64,000 nt of DNA, taken from Escherichia coli (GTDB taxonomy: Bacteria; Pseudomonadota; Gammaproteobacteria; Enterobacterales; Enterobacteriaceae). The stretch lies in NCBI RefSeq assembly GCF_017348835.2, contig NZ_CP071375.1; one strand, given 5' to 3'. Below the pieces are notes generated by a model. It saw only the letters and a program-made list of their open reading frames with translations, was not told where the DNA came from and made no database searches. This document shows positions 3,200-57,398 of the stretch, in pieces. Made by a program: the position numbers and the translations under genes. Positions within the stretch are counted from its first letter, which is position 1; each line of letters opens with the position of its first letter.

Positions 3200-4710
3200 T
3201 CCTTCAATCCCAGACGTTTCGCCAACCGATGCAGGTTGGCGACGTCAGTTTCCAGCATTCGCGCGCAGGCAGCCCAGTTGTGATGATTTTGTGCCAGTGC
3301 CTGACGAATAGTTTCACGCTGGAACGCTTCTGTCGCTTCACGCAGGTTTTGCTTAACAACGGGCACCGCCGCCGCTTCTGGCGGCGGTAACGTCACCTCA
3401 GGAAAAGCAAAATGTTGCGCCTCAAGAATCACTTCATCGCCGTTGCGGGTGGCTCTCGCCAACACTACCGCCCGATGAATAGCATGTTCCAGTTCGCGCA
3501 CGTTCCCCGGAAAACGATAGTGTTGCAGTAAATTTCGCGCTCCGGCACTTAATACCACGCGGGAGAGCCCCAGCCGCAAACGACACTGCTCGCAGAAATA
3601 CCCCGCCAGCAGAATGACATCATCGCCCCGCTCACGCAGCGGCGGCACCGAAAGTGGAAACACGCTCAGGCGGTGGAACAAGTCAGCGCGAAATCGCCCT
3701 GCCAGCACCTCTTCGCGTAAATCGCGGTTAGTCGCCGCCAGCACGCGCACATCGACCCGCAAACTACGGTCATCGCCAACGCGCTGAATATCGCCATACT
3801 GCAACACCCTCAGCAGCTTGGCCTGCAATGCCAACGACAACTCGCCGATCTCATCGAGAAACAGCGTGCCGTTATCCGCCATTTCAAACTTCCCACTGCG
3901 GTTACTGATAGCGCCAGTAAACGCTCCTTTCACATGCCCGAACAACTCACTTTCCGCCACACTTTCCGGCAGTGCGGCACAGTTGAGATAGACCAGCGGA
4001 TTCACCGCCCTTGGCGAGGCTTCATGAATCGCTTTCGCCACCAGCTCCTTACCGGTTCCCGTCTCACCGCTGATTAAGACGTTGAGATCGGACGCCGCCA
4101 CAATCTCAATCTCTTTTTTCAATTGCGTCATGCCTGGCGATAAGCCAATCATCTGCGTCTGTTTCACCGCTTCAAATGGAGCGGCATCGCCCGGCAGCAT
4201 ATTCTGGCTTTCCAGTTGCTCAATCAGCAACGCATTGCTTAACGCTCCCGCCGCCAGCGCAGCAATCAGCCGTAACTCTTCATCGCTGAAAACATCGAAC
4301 TGATCGGGCTGCATCCCGTCGAGCGTCAATGCGCCAATCAGGTTTTGCCCGGCAAACAACGGCAGACCAACGCAGGCGTGAACCTTCAGACTCTCCTGCC
4401 CTGGAATCAAACCGTCATAGGGATCGGGCAATTCGCTGTCTGCGGGAAAGCGCACCACGTCCCCGGCGCGGGCAATCGCTTCCAGCCGTGGATGACCTTC
4501 CAGCGCAAAGCGTCTACCGAGTACATCCTTCGCCAGCCCGTCGATGGCAAGCGGAATAAACTGCCGCGAGTCGTAACGTAGCAACGCAGACGCATCGCAC
4601 TCCAGCACCTGACGCAGCGTGGTGATCAGGCGCTGAAAACGATCCTGATGACCAATCCCACGCTGCAATTCGATGGCGATATTCGCCAGCACATCAACGG
4701 AAAAACTCAT
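3196..4710 (-). CDS. norR: sigma54-dependent nitric-oxide-responsive transcriptional activator
   Basis: 504 aa from MSFSVDV...; GAF domain, AAA+ sigma54-interaction domain ([14 protein letters not shown]) and C-terminal HTH; divergent from norV. The listed ORF starts 25 codons upstream at an earlier Met. Confidence 0.9.
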
Positions 4711-48910: not shown

Positions 48911-49237
<327 letters not shown>

Positions 49238-49241
<4 letters not shown>

Positions 49242-50800: not shown

Positions 50801-53538
50801 ACGCATCCTCTCGTAAAAAAGACCATCCAGGTCGGTTATCCATCCTTTTCGGTGTATCAACTATTCAGAGAGTCTCTGTCGCAGGCATCTCAATCAACCT
50901 TGCCAATCAATCCCTCCCTGGCCGAATACCCGCAACTTTCGTCATCAGTGACTAAAATCACGTTTGCCATCTCCGGATCTTGCCGTTGTTCAACACACCA
51001 CTGCCTGAACGCTTCCCCTTCCAGTAAAGAAAATTCATCCCGATGTTTTTTCCACCAGCTTCGACGCACTCTGGCAACGCTCATTTCCCATGCGTGAGCA
51101 CCGCTGGCATAAGGCTTCACCACACCGTCAATACAGGTAGCCAGCCACAGGGAAACAGACTCTTCAGCCAGACGTGTCGACAGCTTTTCCGGGAGGTAAT
51201 CGTTGATATTGGCGGCATAGCCGGGCCTGAAGTTCAGCATAAACTTTTTAGCCATTGCGCGATCGCAGTAATATTTGCCCACTTGCTCCTGCTCGCTGCG
51301 GGCAAATCCTTCCGGCATTACCACGTCCTCACCGTAGACGGATTCAATAAGAAGCCGGGCTGCGTGTGGCATCTGAATAGCGCCTTGCTCACGCAATACT
51401 CGCTGCGTCAGCCAGATTCGCCCATGATCGGGGTAGACATATGCGCTGTTACGCATCGCACTGCCAAACCATTCGTCACCCGGAGAGTCGTCCCAGACGG
51501 GGGCCAGAATCAGCAATTCAGGAGGGGAACGCTCGTCTTTTCCATCACGCTTTAACTGACCATTAATATCGCGAATATGCCGTTGTAATCGCCCCGCTCG
51601 CTGGATCAGCAAATCAATGGGGGCCAGGTCGGAGATCATTTCGTCCAGGTCAATATCCACACTTTGCTCAATTACTTGTGTACAAACAATGACTTGAGAT
51701 GATCTTTTTAAACTACAATTTTTACCAAAGCGTGCCAGCGTTTCCGTTTCAATTCGCTGGCGATCGCTAAAAGCAAAGCGGCTATGAAAAAGTGAAAGGC
51801 TGGAAGCAGGAATGACGCCGCGGGCAAGTAACTGACGATAAACCTTAATAGCGTCATCGACAGAATTCCGGATCCAGGCGATGCATTTCCCCTGACTTAC
51901 CGCTGATTCGATACGCGCAATACATTCTTGTTCGCTATGAAGCCAACCCACGCTCACGCTACGCTCAACGTCTTTGCGCGTCGCTACCCGGTGCGAATGC
52001 ACATCGGATTTCGTGACATGCGTCAGCCAGGGGTAATCATCCTTTTCCAGGAACGGAGCTTCTTGCTGGCCCTCTGTGCCACGCGCAAAGGCGGCGACAA
52101 GTTTGTCGCGCTGCTGTTGAGATAACGTAGCAGAAAGCAAAATGACGCTGTTTCCGCCACGCACCTGTCGCTCAATCAACCCTTCAAGAATGTACGACAT
52201 GTAAGCGTCACAGGCGTGGATCTCATCAGCCAGCAGGATTTTGTTACTCAACCCCAGAAGCCGCAGATTATTATGTTTAAACGGCATCACTGCCATCATC
52301 GCCTGATCCAGCGTGCCGACGCCAATTTCAGCCAGTAAAGCCTTCTTGTTACTGTCGGCAAACCAGGCTGCACATCCTTGACTGAACGCTTGTTCATCCG
52401 GTTCTTCTGACCCGACTAAATCACCGGACCAGAGTGATTCATTAAAGCGTTCCATTAATGTACGGGCGCTGTGTGCCAGCACCAGGCTGGGGCGGGATTC
52501 TGGCGAAAAGAAAGCAAGCCAGGTTTTGACCAGCCGATCGTACATGGCATTGGCCGTTGCCATTGTTGGCAGGCCAAAAAACAAACCCTGTGCTTTCCTC
52601 GCAGCCATCAACCTGTGCGCCAGGATAAGCGCCGCTTCTGTTTTACCTGCGCCAGTCACGTCTTCCAGAATAAATAACTTTGGCCCTGGCTGGCTGATAT
52701 CCAGATCCAGCACCTTTTGCTGTAATGGTGTCGGGTGCTCAATAAAAGGAAACAGCGTATTAATTCCGGTGAAAGGTGCGGTTTCTGCTTTTGGAGGAAA
52801 GACGGTTAAGGCGTTTTGAGCCTGAACTAAAGTTTTCTGCCAGTAATCTTTAATATCCATTGGGTGTGCGACGCGTGGAAAAAATCGCGTTGACGAACCC
52901 GTCCAGTCTGCGAGTACGACTGTTGCAGAGATATACCAGGAAAGTTGTTTTAAAAGTTCAACGCCCTCGTCATCATCCCAGAATGTGGGAATCTCTATGA
53001 GCGGAAACAGTGCCTTGATTTCAAGGAGAAAATCTCGCGCGGCAGCTTTGTCTTCAGGCAGAAAATTATCCAGCTCATCAATACGGTCAGGTGGTCGACC
53101 ATGATGCCCGGTAGTTATGGACATCCACATCTCTATTACACGTGTAAGTTTACGAGAAGAGAGTGAAGATGAAGGAAGCAACTCCTCACATTCACTTAAA
53201 TAATAATTCCACAGCCAGTAACCCAGCGTTGAATGAGAGATCTTTTCGTAATTCTTTCTGGAACCTTCCGGAATCTTGAGTTCAGGGGCCAGGTAAAGTT
53301 GCTGAAAAGAGCGGGCAAATTTTCCAATATCGTGCCAGCACAACAACCAGGCGAAAAATTGAGCCGCCTGTTCCTTGTCAGAAATCCCTAATTGACGAAA
53401 ATAATCAGCCAGCCCGAAGCAATTTCTTTTAACCATTAAATAGCCCATCGCGGCCACATCCAGCGAATGCCAGCAAAGAAGGTGTGAACCGCCCCGGAAA
53501 TCCTGGAGACTAAACTCCCTGAGAAAGAGGTAAACAGG

Positions 53539-53865
53539 ATGACTAAAAATACTCGTTTTTCCCCCGAAGTCCGTCAGCGGGCGATTCGTATGGTTCTGGA
53601 AAGTCAGGATGAATATGACTCACAGTGGGCGGCAATTTGTTCCATTGCCCCAAAGATTGGCTGTACGCCGGAGACTCTGCGTGTCTGGGTTCGCCAGCAT
53701 GAGCGGGATACCGGGAGTGGTGATGGTGGACTCACCACCGCTGAACGTCAGCGTCTGAAAGAGCTGGAACGTGAAAATCGTGAACTGCGCCGCAGTAACG
53801 ATATCCTTCGCCAGGCTTCCGCTTATTTTGCGAAGGCGGAGTTCGACCGCCTCTGGAAAAAATAA
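53539..53865 (+). CDS. IS3-family transposase OrfA (HTH / leucine zipper)
   Basis: 108-aa [25 protein letters not shown]... that I recognise as IS629/IS1203-type OrfA. Confidence 0.85.
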
Positions 53866-54752
53866 TGCCACTGCTGGATAAGCTGCGTGAGCAGTACGGG
53901 GTCGGACCGGTATGCAGCGAACTGCATATTGCCCCGTCAACGTATTACCATTGTCAGCAACAGCGACATCATCCGGATAAACGCAGTGCCCGTGCGCAGC
54001 ACGATGACTGGCTGAAGAAAGAGATACAGCGCGTATACGATGAAAATCACCAGGTATACGGTGTGCGTAAAGTCTGGCGTCAGTTGTTACGGGAAGGTAT
54101 CAGAGTGGCCAGATGCACTGTGGCACGTCTCATGGCAGTTATGGGACTTGCCGGTGTTCTCCGGGGTAAAAAGGTCCGCACTACCGTCAGCCGGAAAGCC
54201 GTTGCCGCATGCGACCGCGTAAACCGTCAGTTCGTGGCAGAACGTCCAGACCAGTTGTGGGTGGCTGATTTTACCTGGGTAAGCACATGGCAGGGCTTCG
54301 TTTATGTGGCGTTCATCATTGATGTGTTCGCCGGATACATCGTGGGATGGCAGGTCTCATCATCCATGGAAACAACATTCGTGCTGGATGCACTGGAGCA
54401 GGCGTTGTGGGCCCGTCGGCCGTCCGGCACAATCCATCACAGTGATAAAGGTTCTCAGTATGTATCGCTGGCCTACACGCAGCGGCTTAAGGAAGCCGGA
54501 TTACTGGCATCAACAGGGAGTACTGGCGACTCGTATGACAACGCGATGGCTGAGAGCATCAATGGTCTTTACAAAGCGGAGGTAATACACCGTAAGAGCT
54601 GGAAAAACCGGACAGAAGTGGAACTGGCCACACTAACGTGGGTGGACTGGTATAACAATCGACGATTGCTGGAAAGGCTGGGCCATATTCCTCCGGCAGA
54701 AGCAGAAAAAGCTTATTATGCTTCCATCGGAAATAATGATCTGGCAGCCTGA
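53865..54752 (+). CDS. IS3-family transposase OrfB (DDE integrase core)
   Basis: 295-aa ORF with an rve-type catalytic core (...HHSDKGSQY...YDNAMAESINGLYKAE...); its ATG overlaps the orfA stop (TAATG). Confidence 0.85.
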   Translation: MPLLDKLREQYGVGPVCSELHIAPSTYYHCQQQRHHPDKRSARAQHDDWLKKEIQRVYDENHQVYGVRKVWRQLLREGIRVARCTVARLMAVMGLAGVLRGKKVRTTVSRKAVAACDRVNRQFVAERPDQLWVADFTWVSTWQGFVYVAFIIDVFAGYIVGWQVSSSMETTFVLDALEQALWARRPSGTIHHSDKGSQYVSLAYTQRLKEAGLLASTGSTGDSYDNAMAESINGLYKAEVIHRKSWKNRTEVELATLTWVDWYNNRRLLERLGHIPPAEAEKAYYASIGNNDLAA

Positions 54753-55067
54753 GTTCACAGATAAAACACTCTCCAGGAAACCCGGGGCGGTTCAGTGATA
54801 GTCGTCACCCCCTTCTTTCTCGTCGCGTCGGGTTTTTCCCCAGAAATCAAAGAAAGTCACAATATTTTTATCCTTCAGTAAACTTAAAGGATATTTACGC
54901 ATATTTTAAAAATTATCTGTGATATATATCAGCCAATAAAACATTTATATTGTGAATAAATTTATGATTTTCATTTGAAATTCATAATAATAAATAGAGA
55001 CAATATATTCACATAAAAAATATAAATTTAAAAAAGGGTGCAGGAGACCAAACCATCACAATTCAAT

Positions 55068-55089
55068 ACGCGGGGTTTTACCCCCGCGT
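55068..55089 (-). terminator. hairpin terminator downstream of the hok-like gene
   Basis: acgcggggttttacccccgcgt stem-loop 6 nt after the hok stop, followed on the minus strand by a T-rich tract. Confidence 0.5.
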
Positions 55090-55094
55090 GGTGG

Positions 55095-55247
55095 CTACTT
55101 CTTCGATTCGTAAGCGAGAACAGCCTTAAACTCCATACCACGTTCCCTGATACTCAACTCACACAACGAGTCGCCTACCATCAGCGTGAATCCCAGTACT
55201 GTACAACACAGTACGATGATTGCCACAAGGGCATATTTTGTCAGCAT
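55095..55247 (-). CDS. Hok/Gef-family small membrane toxin
   Basis: 50-aa [53 protein letters not shown] with an N-terminal TM helix and the conserved SLCE...AYES C-terminal pattern; not in the supplied ORF track because it is below the size cutoff. Confidence 0.75.
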
Positions 55248-55308
55248 GTCTGTGTAAGTTCACAGAGATATTGCAATTGCCTCCGGATAAGTAAGGGGAG
55301 ATTGCACT

Positions 55309-56330
55309 ATGCAAATGCAGCATCTGATGGTTGGCTATCCTAAGTACTACCAAACGGCCGATTATGCGTTGAGGCTTTCAGTGATGGCTGATATAGCAAC
55401 AATGAGAATGAAGGCTCTGCACTTCTGGGATAAACACGGTATTTCTGCAGCTTCTGAAGCCTTTGGCGTGTCCTGCCGCACGCTTTACTGGTGGCGTCAG
55501 TTACTGAACAAGGAAGGACCTGAGGGGCTAATCCCGCACAGTAAGGCACCTCTGGTGCGACGAAAAAAACACTGGCATCCCGATGTGCTGAAAGAGATTC
55601 GACGCCTCAGGACAGAGCTGCCGAACCTCGGTAAAGAGCAGATTTTTGTTCGCCTGAAGCCCTGGTGCGAACAGCGCTATCTGGCCTGTCCGAGTGTTTC
55701 CACCATCGGCAGAATGATCGCTGCCGCACATGATAAAATGCGGATGATACCTGTGCGTCTGGGATCGCGGGGGAAGGCACTGCTTGTCAAAAAGCGGTCT
55801 GCCAAACCCCGCAGGCCAAAGCACTACCGCCCGGTAAAGACAGGTGAGCTCATTGGGATGGACGCCATTGAGCTCAGAATGGGCGAACTGCGTCGCTATG
55901 TCATCACCATGATCGACGAATGCAGCAATTACGCGCTGGCTGTGCCGTCACTCAACAGTGATATCGTCAATCACTTCTTCAGCCGCGCAGCCCGGTTGTT
56001 CCCGGTCGGTATCAGCCAGATAATCACAGATAACGGAAAAGAGTTCCTGGGAAACTTCGACAAAACGCTGCAGGAAGCCGCTATCAAACACCTCTGGACC
56101 TATCCCTACACGCCAAAAATGAACGCTATCTGTGAACGTTTTAACCGGACGTTAAGAGAGCAGTTTATTGAATTTAATGAGATTTTACTCTTTGAAGATC
56201 TGGCGCTATTTAACCAGAAGCTGGCGGAATATCTGGTGCTGTATAACAGCAAAAGACCCCACAAGGCGCTCGCACTAATGACGCCCGTGGAATATATTTT
56301 AAAAGAGAATAAAAATTGCAATATGTGGTG
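55309..56330 (+). CDS. DDE (rve/integrase-core) transposase, IS481-family-like; element ends not resolved
   Basis: N-terminal HTH (ISAASEAFGVSCRTLYWW) followed by an integrase core (ITDNGKEF...YTPKMNAICERFNRTLREQ...YNSKRPHKAL). The listed ORF runs on to 56739 into cysH antisense, which I take as read-through; the true 3' end is estimated near 56300-56330. Confidence 0.6.
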
Positions 56331-56606
56331 GACCCATACAATGTCTTGCCTCCCTGCAAAGAAGAGACTAACATTCGAATTGCTTAGGTTCGAACGCTGG
56401 CCTCAGGTTGATAGAAATATCGCCTGGGGCTTTTGTCCATCTGGAACCTCGCGAATGCTTAACGCCAGACAGCCTCAAGCACCCGACGCCATTCTATACC
56501 TGATAATTCTTCCAGCGGCGTTCACGTTTAAAATCAGGAATGCTGCTCGCAAAATAAAAACGCCCCCATCATTTCTGACAGAGGCGTTTAATTTATCCGG
56601 CAATAT

Positions 56607-57341
56607 TTACCCTTCGTGTAACCCACATTCCCTTTTTAAGCCAAAGAAACGCGTTTCTTCTTCCGCCATGCCAGGTTCCCATTTACGGGTTGTATGGGTA
56701 TCACCGACCGATAAATATCCTTCGTCCCATAATGGGTGATATTTCAGGCCATGCTTTTGCAGATACTGATATATCGTTCGGTTATCCCAATCGATAATCG
56801 GTAGCACTTTAAATACGCCACGCTGAATTGTCAGCACCGGTAAATTGGCGCGGCTGCCGGATTGTTCGCGGCGCAGGCCAGCAAACCACGTTTGCGCGTT
56901 AAGTTCTTTCAGCGCCCGGTTCATCGGTTCGACTTTGTTGATGTCATTGTACTTTTCAATGCCTTCAACGCCCTGCTCCCACAGTTTTCCGTAGCGTGCT
57001 TCCTGCCAGGCTGCGCTTTCGGTAGCACGGTACACTTTCAGGTTGAGCTTGAGTTTGTCCGTTAACTCGTCAATAAAGCGGTAGGTTTCCGGGAACAAGT
57101 AACCGGTATCGGTGAGGATCACTGGAATATCCGGGCGAATCTGATTCACCAGATGCAGGCTCACCGCCGCCTGAATGCCGAAGCTGGAAGAAAGCACATA
57201 TTCACCGGGCAGATTATCCAGCGCCCAGGCTACGCGGCCTTCAGCGTCCAGTTTTTCCAGTTGGGCGTTAGTTTCCGCCAGCGCCAGAATGCGATCTACC
57301 TTCGGCAGTTCGTTCAGGGCGTTTAGATCGAGTTTGGACAT
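56607..57341 (-). CDS. cysH: phosphoadenosine phosphosulfate reductase
   Basis: 244 aa from [22 protein letters not shown] with C-terminal ECGLH. The listed ORF starts 51 codons upstream. Confidence 0.93.
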
Positions 57342-57362
57342 AGATTCCTCACTGTTTGCCTT

Positions 57363-57398
57363 GCCTGATGCGACGCTCACGCGTCTTATCAGGCCTAC
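57363..57398. repeat. REP element between cysI and cysH
   Basis: gcctgatgcgacgctcacgcgtcttatcaggcctac palindromic unit. Confidence 0.55.

Follow-up and report, generated by a model that had tools for sequence, protein, structure and literature searches.

Introduction

The best described relatives of the locus reported here are the hok/mok/sok system of R1 and the hokB/mokB/sokB system of K-12, which share with hokX a Hok toxin, an RF01794 leader and an antisense Sok gene overlapping that leader. From what is known of R1 hok, hok mRNAs are expected to carry a pairing between their two ends, tac and fbi. In K-12, hokA is disrupted by IS150 and hokE by IS186.

The names hokX and sokX have been used in surveys of toxin-antitoxin (TA) systems (PMC11598369), including TADB-based ones. 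A hok gene together with sokX was found beside cysH in 90% of UPEC strains, and sokX alone in K-12-like strains (PMC12736100). A study of AIEC located hokX in the cysH-iap region and reported that an insertion element has put the hokX gene of E. coli B out of action (PMC7232551). The same study cites Pedersen and Gerdes (1999) for the statement that insertion elements, point mutations or rearrangement have made the hok loci of K-12 non-functional (cited in PMC7232551).

Here we describe a stretch of 64,000 nucleotides of Escherichia coli DNA (contig NZ_CP071375.1), referred to below as the window, which very probably carries the chromosomal type I TA locus hokX/sokX between cysH and cas3, disrupted in this strain by an insertion sequence (IS). 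The locus occupies the same cysH-cas3 position and encodes the same protein (WP_000956458.1) as the hokX/sokX already known, but in the window it is split between the Shine-Dalgarno sequence (SD) and the ATG of hok by a 1090-bp element of the IS481 family. The hokX locus and the IS-disrupted state of hok genes are thus already known, and only the particular IS and its position are lineage-specific.

Results and discussion

Identity of the toxin gene

The hokX toxin ORF (55095-55247, minus strand) is an intact frame of 50 codons whose product is the same as WP_000956458.1, labelled 'Hok/Gef family protein' in RefSeq. An earlier reading of the window from the sequence only had placed a Hok/Gef ORF of 50 amino acids on the minus strand at this position, and both the translation and the family profiles bear this out. 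In the profile search which that reading had suggested, Pfam HOK_GEF (PF01848) matched the product over the whole model (positions 1-42 of 42, E=6.3e-10). The NCBIfam models for HokA (E=2.6e-14) and for the Hok family (E=3.6e-10) were matched as well, both under their curated equivalog/subfamily cut-offs, and the protein is therefore a Hok but not HokA. It has the usual Hok/Gef form, with about 50 amino acids, an N-terminal hydrophobic helix and a C-terminal L-C-E...R...E...A-Y-E-S region. When aligned with K-12 HokB (33% identity) and K-12 HokC (39% identity), HokX retains the L-x-E...R...E...A-x-x-S positions and a (Y/T)-x-S tail, and residues M1, V8, C14, T16, L22, L28, E30, R34, E39, A45 and S48 are invariant in all three proteins. 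The protein was the same in five further genomes examined (F2_81, PapRG-04-4, ATCC 43894, PBP8 and EC5654), and WP_000956458.1 was present in all hok-bearing genomes opened except BL21-RIPL, which has WP_000956460.1. Judged by its translation and family membership, the ORF is a genuine Hok/Gef-family gene, known as hokX.

A probable IS481-family element within the locus

Directly upstream of the hok start lies an insertion sequence of the IS481 family (55251-56340, plus strand), 1090 bp long, with TGT...ACA ends and imperfect terminal inverted repeats of about 28 bp. The insertion point is the 6-nt spacer between the hok SD and the hok ATG, where the pentanucleotide GACAT has been duplicated; reading of the junctions places one copy at 56341-56345 and the other, which takes in the AT of the hok ATG, at 55246-55250 (both minus strand). 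The transposase matched NF033577 (transpos_IS481) with E=3.3e-63 and 213.9 bits, just under the curated cut-off of 224. An independent copy on plasmid p2 of strain E2 is annotated by PGAP as 'IS481 family transposase', and its sampled end segments match the IS of the window, the identity ending at the right terminal nucleotide and within 2 nt at the left. This plasmid copy bears its own 5-bp duplication, CACTC. As read from these ends and junctions, a 1090-bp element, probably of the IS481 family, is shown to have transposed between the SD and the ATG of hok.

The transposase ORF (55309-56739, plus strand) has 344 codons in the IS, followed by a read-through of 132 codons. It finds no stop within the element, and its read-through passes over sokX, the leader and promoter of hok and the terminator of cysH before it enters the 3' end of the cysH gene, to which it is antisense. 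PGAP treats the window-type copy in the pig isolate PE164 as a pseudogene, and in the p2 copy the ORF terminates 9 nt beyond its IS.

Copies of the element also differ in length and at the right end. At 55933 (plus strand), inside the transposase gene, the IS of the window is without 6 bp (GCGCTG, in frame) that are present in the 1096-bp copies of F2_81 and p2. Deletions of 8-9 bp directly at the right end of the IS were seen in four IS-bearing genomes (window 56341-56348). That of F2_81 (8 bp, ATGTCTTG) takes out one copy of the duplication and half of the sokX -35 element, and shortens the transposase read-through, which stops there at window-equivalent 56385.

The displaced leader and the sokX gene

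Beyond the IS lies the 5' leader of the hokX mRNA (56341-56484, minus strand), with tac, the Sok target region, the start of an upstream ORF (uORF) and the hok SD, now cut off from the toxin ORF. It was recognized through Rfam family RF01794, which is named 'sok' and in practice represents the hok mRNA leader in the sense orientation, ending at the hok AUG. The match (56335-56484, minus strand) scored 105 bits against a gathering score of 59 (E=8e-24), and its terminal 6 nt (TGTATG) are IS sequence. It sits 1.09 kb upstream of the hokX ORF on the same strand, and the Rfam scan gave no second hok/sok locus in the whole 64-kb window. The leader differs from the K-12 sokX region by 4 mismatches up to the ATG.

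Weak Rfam matches below their gathering scores to ctRNA_p42d (56549-56591), sR19 (55320-55393) and naRNA4 (57354-57395) were set aside as chance or REP matches. The last of these falls on a REP-like palindrome (57354-57395) between cysI and cysH, where the sub-threshold naRNA4 match occurs on both strands.

The leader starts at GGGTGCTTGAGG (56484), 6 nt downstream of a probable -10 hexamer of the hok promoter, TAGAAT (56491-56496, minus strand). This hexamer aligns with the TATAAT upstream of K-12 hokC and was not picked up by the strict promoter scan. The tac-like 5' end (GGGUGCUUGAGGCU) occupies 56471-56484 (minus strand), and the hok SD, GGAGG, lies at 56349-56353 (minus strand); its distance to the hok ATG is 6 nt in intact alleles but 1101 nt in the window.

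The sokX antisense RNA gene (56382-56440, plus strand) is complete, as transferred by alignment from the K-12 annotation b4701. The predicted fold of SokX (-22.7 kcal/mol, z=-3.6) has a terminator-like hairpin followed by UUUUGU. Its probable promoter (56346-56374, plus strand) consists of a -35 element TTGCCT (56346-56351), a 17-nt spacer and a -10 element TAACAT (56369-56374); these hexamers, read from the sequence according to their position, were not found by the strict promoter scan. The IS ends 5 nt short of the -35 element, and sokX with its core promoter therefore survives.

Nearly all differences between hokX leaders are concentrated on a single hairpin, GCGTTCGAA-loop-TTCGAATGT, where they affect its loop and its flanks (alignment columns 141-165). 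Since this variable stretch corresponds to the 5' single-stranded tail of SokX (56382-56400, plus strand), the recognition region varies while the rest is invariant.

The mok-like frame and the uORF

The sequence-only reading had also described an overlapping frame, arranged like mok, that can start at a GTG and ends at a TGA within hok. The frame does exist (55159-55353, minus strand, 64 codons), with the in-frame GTG at 55263-55261, the TGA within hok, and the phase relative to hok that K-12 mokB has. It is, however, composed of two parts, a relic of the mok frame in hok (55159-55250) and a stretch of the IS (55251-55353) that runs antisense to the beginning of the transposase gene. The GTG belongs to the terminal inverted repeat of the IS, and all possible starts further upstream are also in the IS, so that the frame is a hok/IS chimera and not a mok gene. 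It is open over 64 codons in the window because it continues into the IS. In the hok-retaining alleles, the mok-phase frame is closed by a TAG 10 sense codons ahead of the codon that overlaps the hok ATG, and no ATG, GTG or TTG start was found between that TAG and the hok ATG in the restored locus or in any of the hok-retaining alleles.

The mokB frame of K-12 opens 58 nt before hokB and closes within it. The position of the mokB ATG is TCG in hokX, and 8 nt present in hokB are missing from hokX, which shifts the frame. A search for a mok of the R1 or mokB type found none, either in the restored locus or in the five further alleles examined.

Unlike the R1 and hokB systems with their long mok, hokX has a uORF of 12 codons (MLVSSLQGGKTC) that stops on the hok start. 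The start codon of the uORF, ATG (56372-56374, minus strand), is conserved, and in intact alleles the stop codon, TGA or TAA, overlaps codons 2-3 of hok. Both start and stop were conserved in the five hok-retaining alleles that were fetched, and K-12 retains the ATG. In O157, hok codon 2 is changed from CTG to CTA, which is silent in hok and turns the uORF stop from TGA into TAA. The first codons of the uORF align in frame with mokB codons. From this alignment and conservation we infer that the uORF is a shortened mok, which could couple translation by termination-reinitiation and is the only candidate for a coupling ORF. In the window it runs into the IS and lies beyond it, on the far side from the hok ORF.

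The 3' untranslated region and the pairing of the mRNA ends

Immediately after the hok stop, a stem-loop (ACGCGGGG-GTAAAA-CCCCGCGT; 55068-55089, minus strand) is read from the sequence and also forms in the predicted fold, with a GC-rich stem of 8 bp (55082-55089 paired with 55068-55075). It had been described earlier as a GC-rich hairpin terminator following hok. The hairpin is there, but the term terminator does not hold, as no U-run follows, the next bases being ATTGAATTG, and the hairpin was not among the calls of the terminator scan. An equivalent stem-loop follows the stop codon in K-12 hokB and hokC. The hairpin is an internal stem of the 3' UTR and not a canonical terminator.

The probable 3' end of the mRNA lies further on (55030-55049, minus strand), where an fbi-like element (GGUCUCCUGCACCC, 55036-55049) is followed by a run of six T (55030-55035). 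The fbi element is kept in five of the six full-length sequences aligned, with one G-U-compatible change in O157, and is lost in BL21 to an IS186-type end. In the restored mRNA of 360 nt (-130.6 kcal/mol, z=-3.7), nucleotides 1-6 and 9-14 pair with fbi in both the MFE and the centroid structure. Among the alleles there were no compensatory changes between tac and fbi; the only change was from G-C to G-U, in O157. hokX has the post-stop stem-loop in common with the R1 and K-12 hokB systems, and a tac-fbi pairing like theirs is predicted for it. A comparison of RNA structure with hok mRNAs, also suggested earlier, thus recovers the leader and a predicted tac-fbi pairing in the restored mRNA, but these are not contiguous with the ORF in the window, where tac and fbi are about 1.45 kb apart.

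Empty sites and distribution of the alleles

Removal of the IS and one GACAT from the window restores ...GGGAGGCAAGACATGCTGACAAAA... and brings the hok SD (GGAGG) back to within 6 nt of its ATG. A 405-nt query restored in this way was searched in 5426 complete E. coli genomes and was found in one piece in 4147 of them, the best match being 99.8% identical. Each of the 40 matches listed carries a Hok/Gef annotation, and the intact alleles among the matches listed agree with the restored sequence at 99.3-99.8% identity. In the empty-site genomes that were opened, the locus adjoins cysH. The two actual hok-IS junctions, on the other hand, were present in 35 and 36 of the 5426 genomes, including E2348/69 (O127:H6), O103:H2 strains and isolates from pig, cattle, poultry, dog and baboon. 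Window positions 54900-56800 are identical to the sequence of the pig isolate PE164, with the same gene order. The precise empty site, together with junctions in few genomes, supports that the insertion is real and precise and that it represents a minority allele.

The state known from K-12, with leader and sokX kept and hok gone, was found in 1173 of the 5426 genomes, in agreement with the earlier statement that K-12 has only a sok-like RNA gene (sokX) near cysH. The same reading had considered an intact hok ORF at this place notable. This no longer stands, as the window is not K-12, roughly three in four complete E. coli genomes have a cysH-linked hok, and hokX had already been named.

K-12 homology ends right after ...GGAGGCAAGACATG, and this junction is common to the 1173 genomes. 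The sequence of K-12 past the break showed no significant similarity to the ends of this IS or to the DNA upstream of cas3 in the window (local alignment scores of 16-24, against a mean of 19 and a maximum of 27 for shuffled sequences).

The K-12-type break also falls within 1 nt of the IS insertion site of the window (K-12 4310-4353 compared with window 56341-56345). That the SD-ATG junction of hokX is a recurrent breakpoint is conceivable, though we consider it unlikely. If true, it would fit a K-12 state brought about by an IS, for instance through deletion, or repeated selection for disarming hok beside CRISPR-Cas.

Comparison with other disrupted hok loci

The IS-inactivated hok loci of K-12 and E. 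coli B resemble that of the window in that an intact or nearly intact ORF remains while the architecture of the regulatory RNA is broken by an IS. In K-12 and E. coli B, however, the insertions are on the 3' side and remove fbi and the 3' end, whereas that of the window is on the 5' side, removes the promoter, leader and SD, and belongs to the IS481 family. In K-12 hokC, IS186A lies 20 bp past the stop.

In hokX of BL21-RIPL (~1000-1040; window equivalent 55076-55081), an IS186-type end (ATAAGCGCTAACTTAAGGGTTG...) is located in the loop or 3' arm of the post-stop hairpin. This end has the same terminal sequence as the IS186A beside K-12 hokC. In BL21, tRNA-Lys and cpoB follow in place of cas3 or iap, and the region has thus been rearranged.

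The neighbouring cas region

Further changes were observed on the cas side of the locus. The cas3 gene is split after about codon 36 by an IS3-family element of 1310 bp (53485-54794, plus strand), which leaves cas3 pieces at 50890-53484 and 54795-54902 (minus strand). This element has inverted repeats TGAACCGCCCCGG... and a 3-bp duplication, GTG, and its transposase is of the programmed-frameshift type with an ALIL pseudoknot (53820-53936). F2_81 has the empty site for the IS3-family element and an intact cas3. The type I-E cas operon is degraded, as seen at window 48911-49240 (transferred from PE164 752-1082); the annotation of PE164 shows casA and then a partial casB fused next to cas2e, and cas7, cas5, cas6e and cas1 of the K-12 set are missing. 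The whole iap-cysH interval is decaying in this strain.

Functional state of the locus

The toxin ORF and its 3' UTR, with stem-loop and fbi, are on one side of the IS, and the hok promoter, the leader (tac, Sok target, uORF and SD) and the complete sokX with its promoter are on the other side, 1.09 kb upstream. The locus had been called an intact hok locus by the sequence-only reading, but intactness applies only to the ORF, the promoter, leader, Sok target and SD being 1.09 kb off across the IS. In the window, the hok ATG is preceded by AACTTACACAGAC (...GTGAACTTACACAGAC-ATG), which contains no SD. Neither the sequence nor the promoter scan gave a minus-strand promoter facing outward from the IS, or an SD, in the stretch ahead of the hok ATG, and the sole minus-strand promoter-like site near this end (55244-55216) begins inside the hokX ORF. 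As the hok ORF has neither an SD nor a promoter that can be recognised as its own, the toxin is most likely no longer made, and hokX is here most likely a silenced remnant.

In an intact locus, the pairing of tac at the 5' end with fbi at the 3' end would hold the hok mRNA closed, the SokX antisense RNA would pair with the leader, and translation of hok would rely on the upstream SD and the uORF. In the split locus, transcription of sokX probably continues, without a translatable target, and transcription from the hok promoter would now enter the transposase gene in antisense orientation. No disabling mutation is present in the hok ORF, which indicates that the insertion is recent or that the ORF is still tolerated.

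A different possibility is that the split locus still makes toxin, from a read-through mRNA, transcribed from the hok promoter or from the IS, that would still begin with tac and finish with fbi, by coupling from the IS-derived frame that starts, for example, at ATG 55324-55322 or GTG 55263-55261 and stops at TGA 55161-55159, in which case Hok might be outside Sok control. On the minus strand of the IS the terminator scan gave no candidate site, so that transcripts from the hok promoter could cross the element and carry the hok ORF, and the ORF, fbi, tac and the hok promoter region are all undamaged. That the IS allele persists in at least 35 genomes of different hosts, its ORF undecayed, would also be compatible with residual toxin, and the chimeric 64-codon frame over the hok start could in principle provide weak coupled translation. 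Nevertheless, there is no SD at the hok ATG and no convincing SD ahead of the chimeric frame, and such a transcript would run opposite to a transposase gene that is expressed. Unregulated Hok would moreover be lethal, and the persistence of the allele therefore argues rather for silence, while the identity of the ORF to that of intact alleles fits a recent insertion over selection. We consequently hold continued toxin synthesis to be improbable.

It is very hard to maintain that 55068-55263 forms an intact and functional hok/mok/sok module, with the GTG frame as mok and the hairpin as terminator. Such a module would agree with the whole ORF of a clear Hok member and with an overlapping frame in the phase of K-12 mokB, but the GTG and all starts upstream of it lie within the IS, the same frame is closed by TAG and startless in intact alleles, the hairpin has no U-run, and the leader, Sok target, SD and sokX are found past the IS, at 56341-56484. 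Small ORFs are common, with 20 ORFs of at least 20 codons overlapping 1.2 kb here, and the toxin ORF might on these grounds be taken for a chance open frame or a decayed pseudogene unrelated to any toxin-antitoxin system. We give this practically no credence, considering the full-length match to PF01848 (E=6e-10), the unchanged protein in F2_81, PapRG-04-4, ATCC 43894, PBP8 and EC5654, the cognate leader and antisense gene close by, and the 33-39% identity to HokB and HokC with the L-x-E motif, the Arg and the (Y/T)-x-S tail. The silenced remnant of a hokX/sokX locus is thus the reading which we prefer.

Implications

The window adds a further case of a chromosomal hok gene disarmed by an IS, in this instance by another IS family and from the 5' side. 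Against the distribution of alleles in complete genomes, the 'sokX orphan' of K-12 is a minority state, and this strain represents a third state, in which hok is present but unplugged. The insertion would also make a new antisense layout, with the hok promoter facing across the transposase gene and a stopless transposase ORF running through sokX. The finding has little import beyond annotation, where the label 'intact' on a small toxin ORF can mislead. For type I toxin loci the ORF by itself is not a sufficient basis for judgement, which has to take in the whole RNA architecture of promoter, leader, antisense gene, SD and 3' pairing element.
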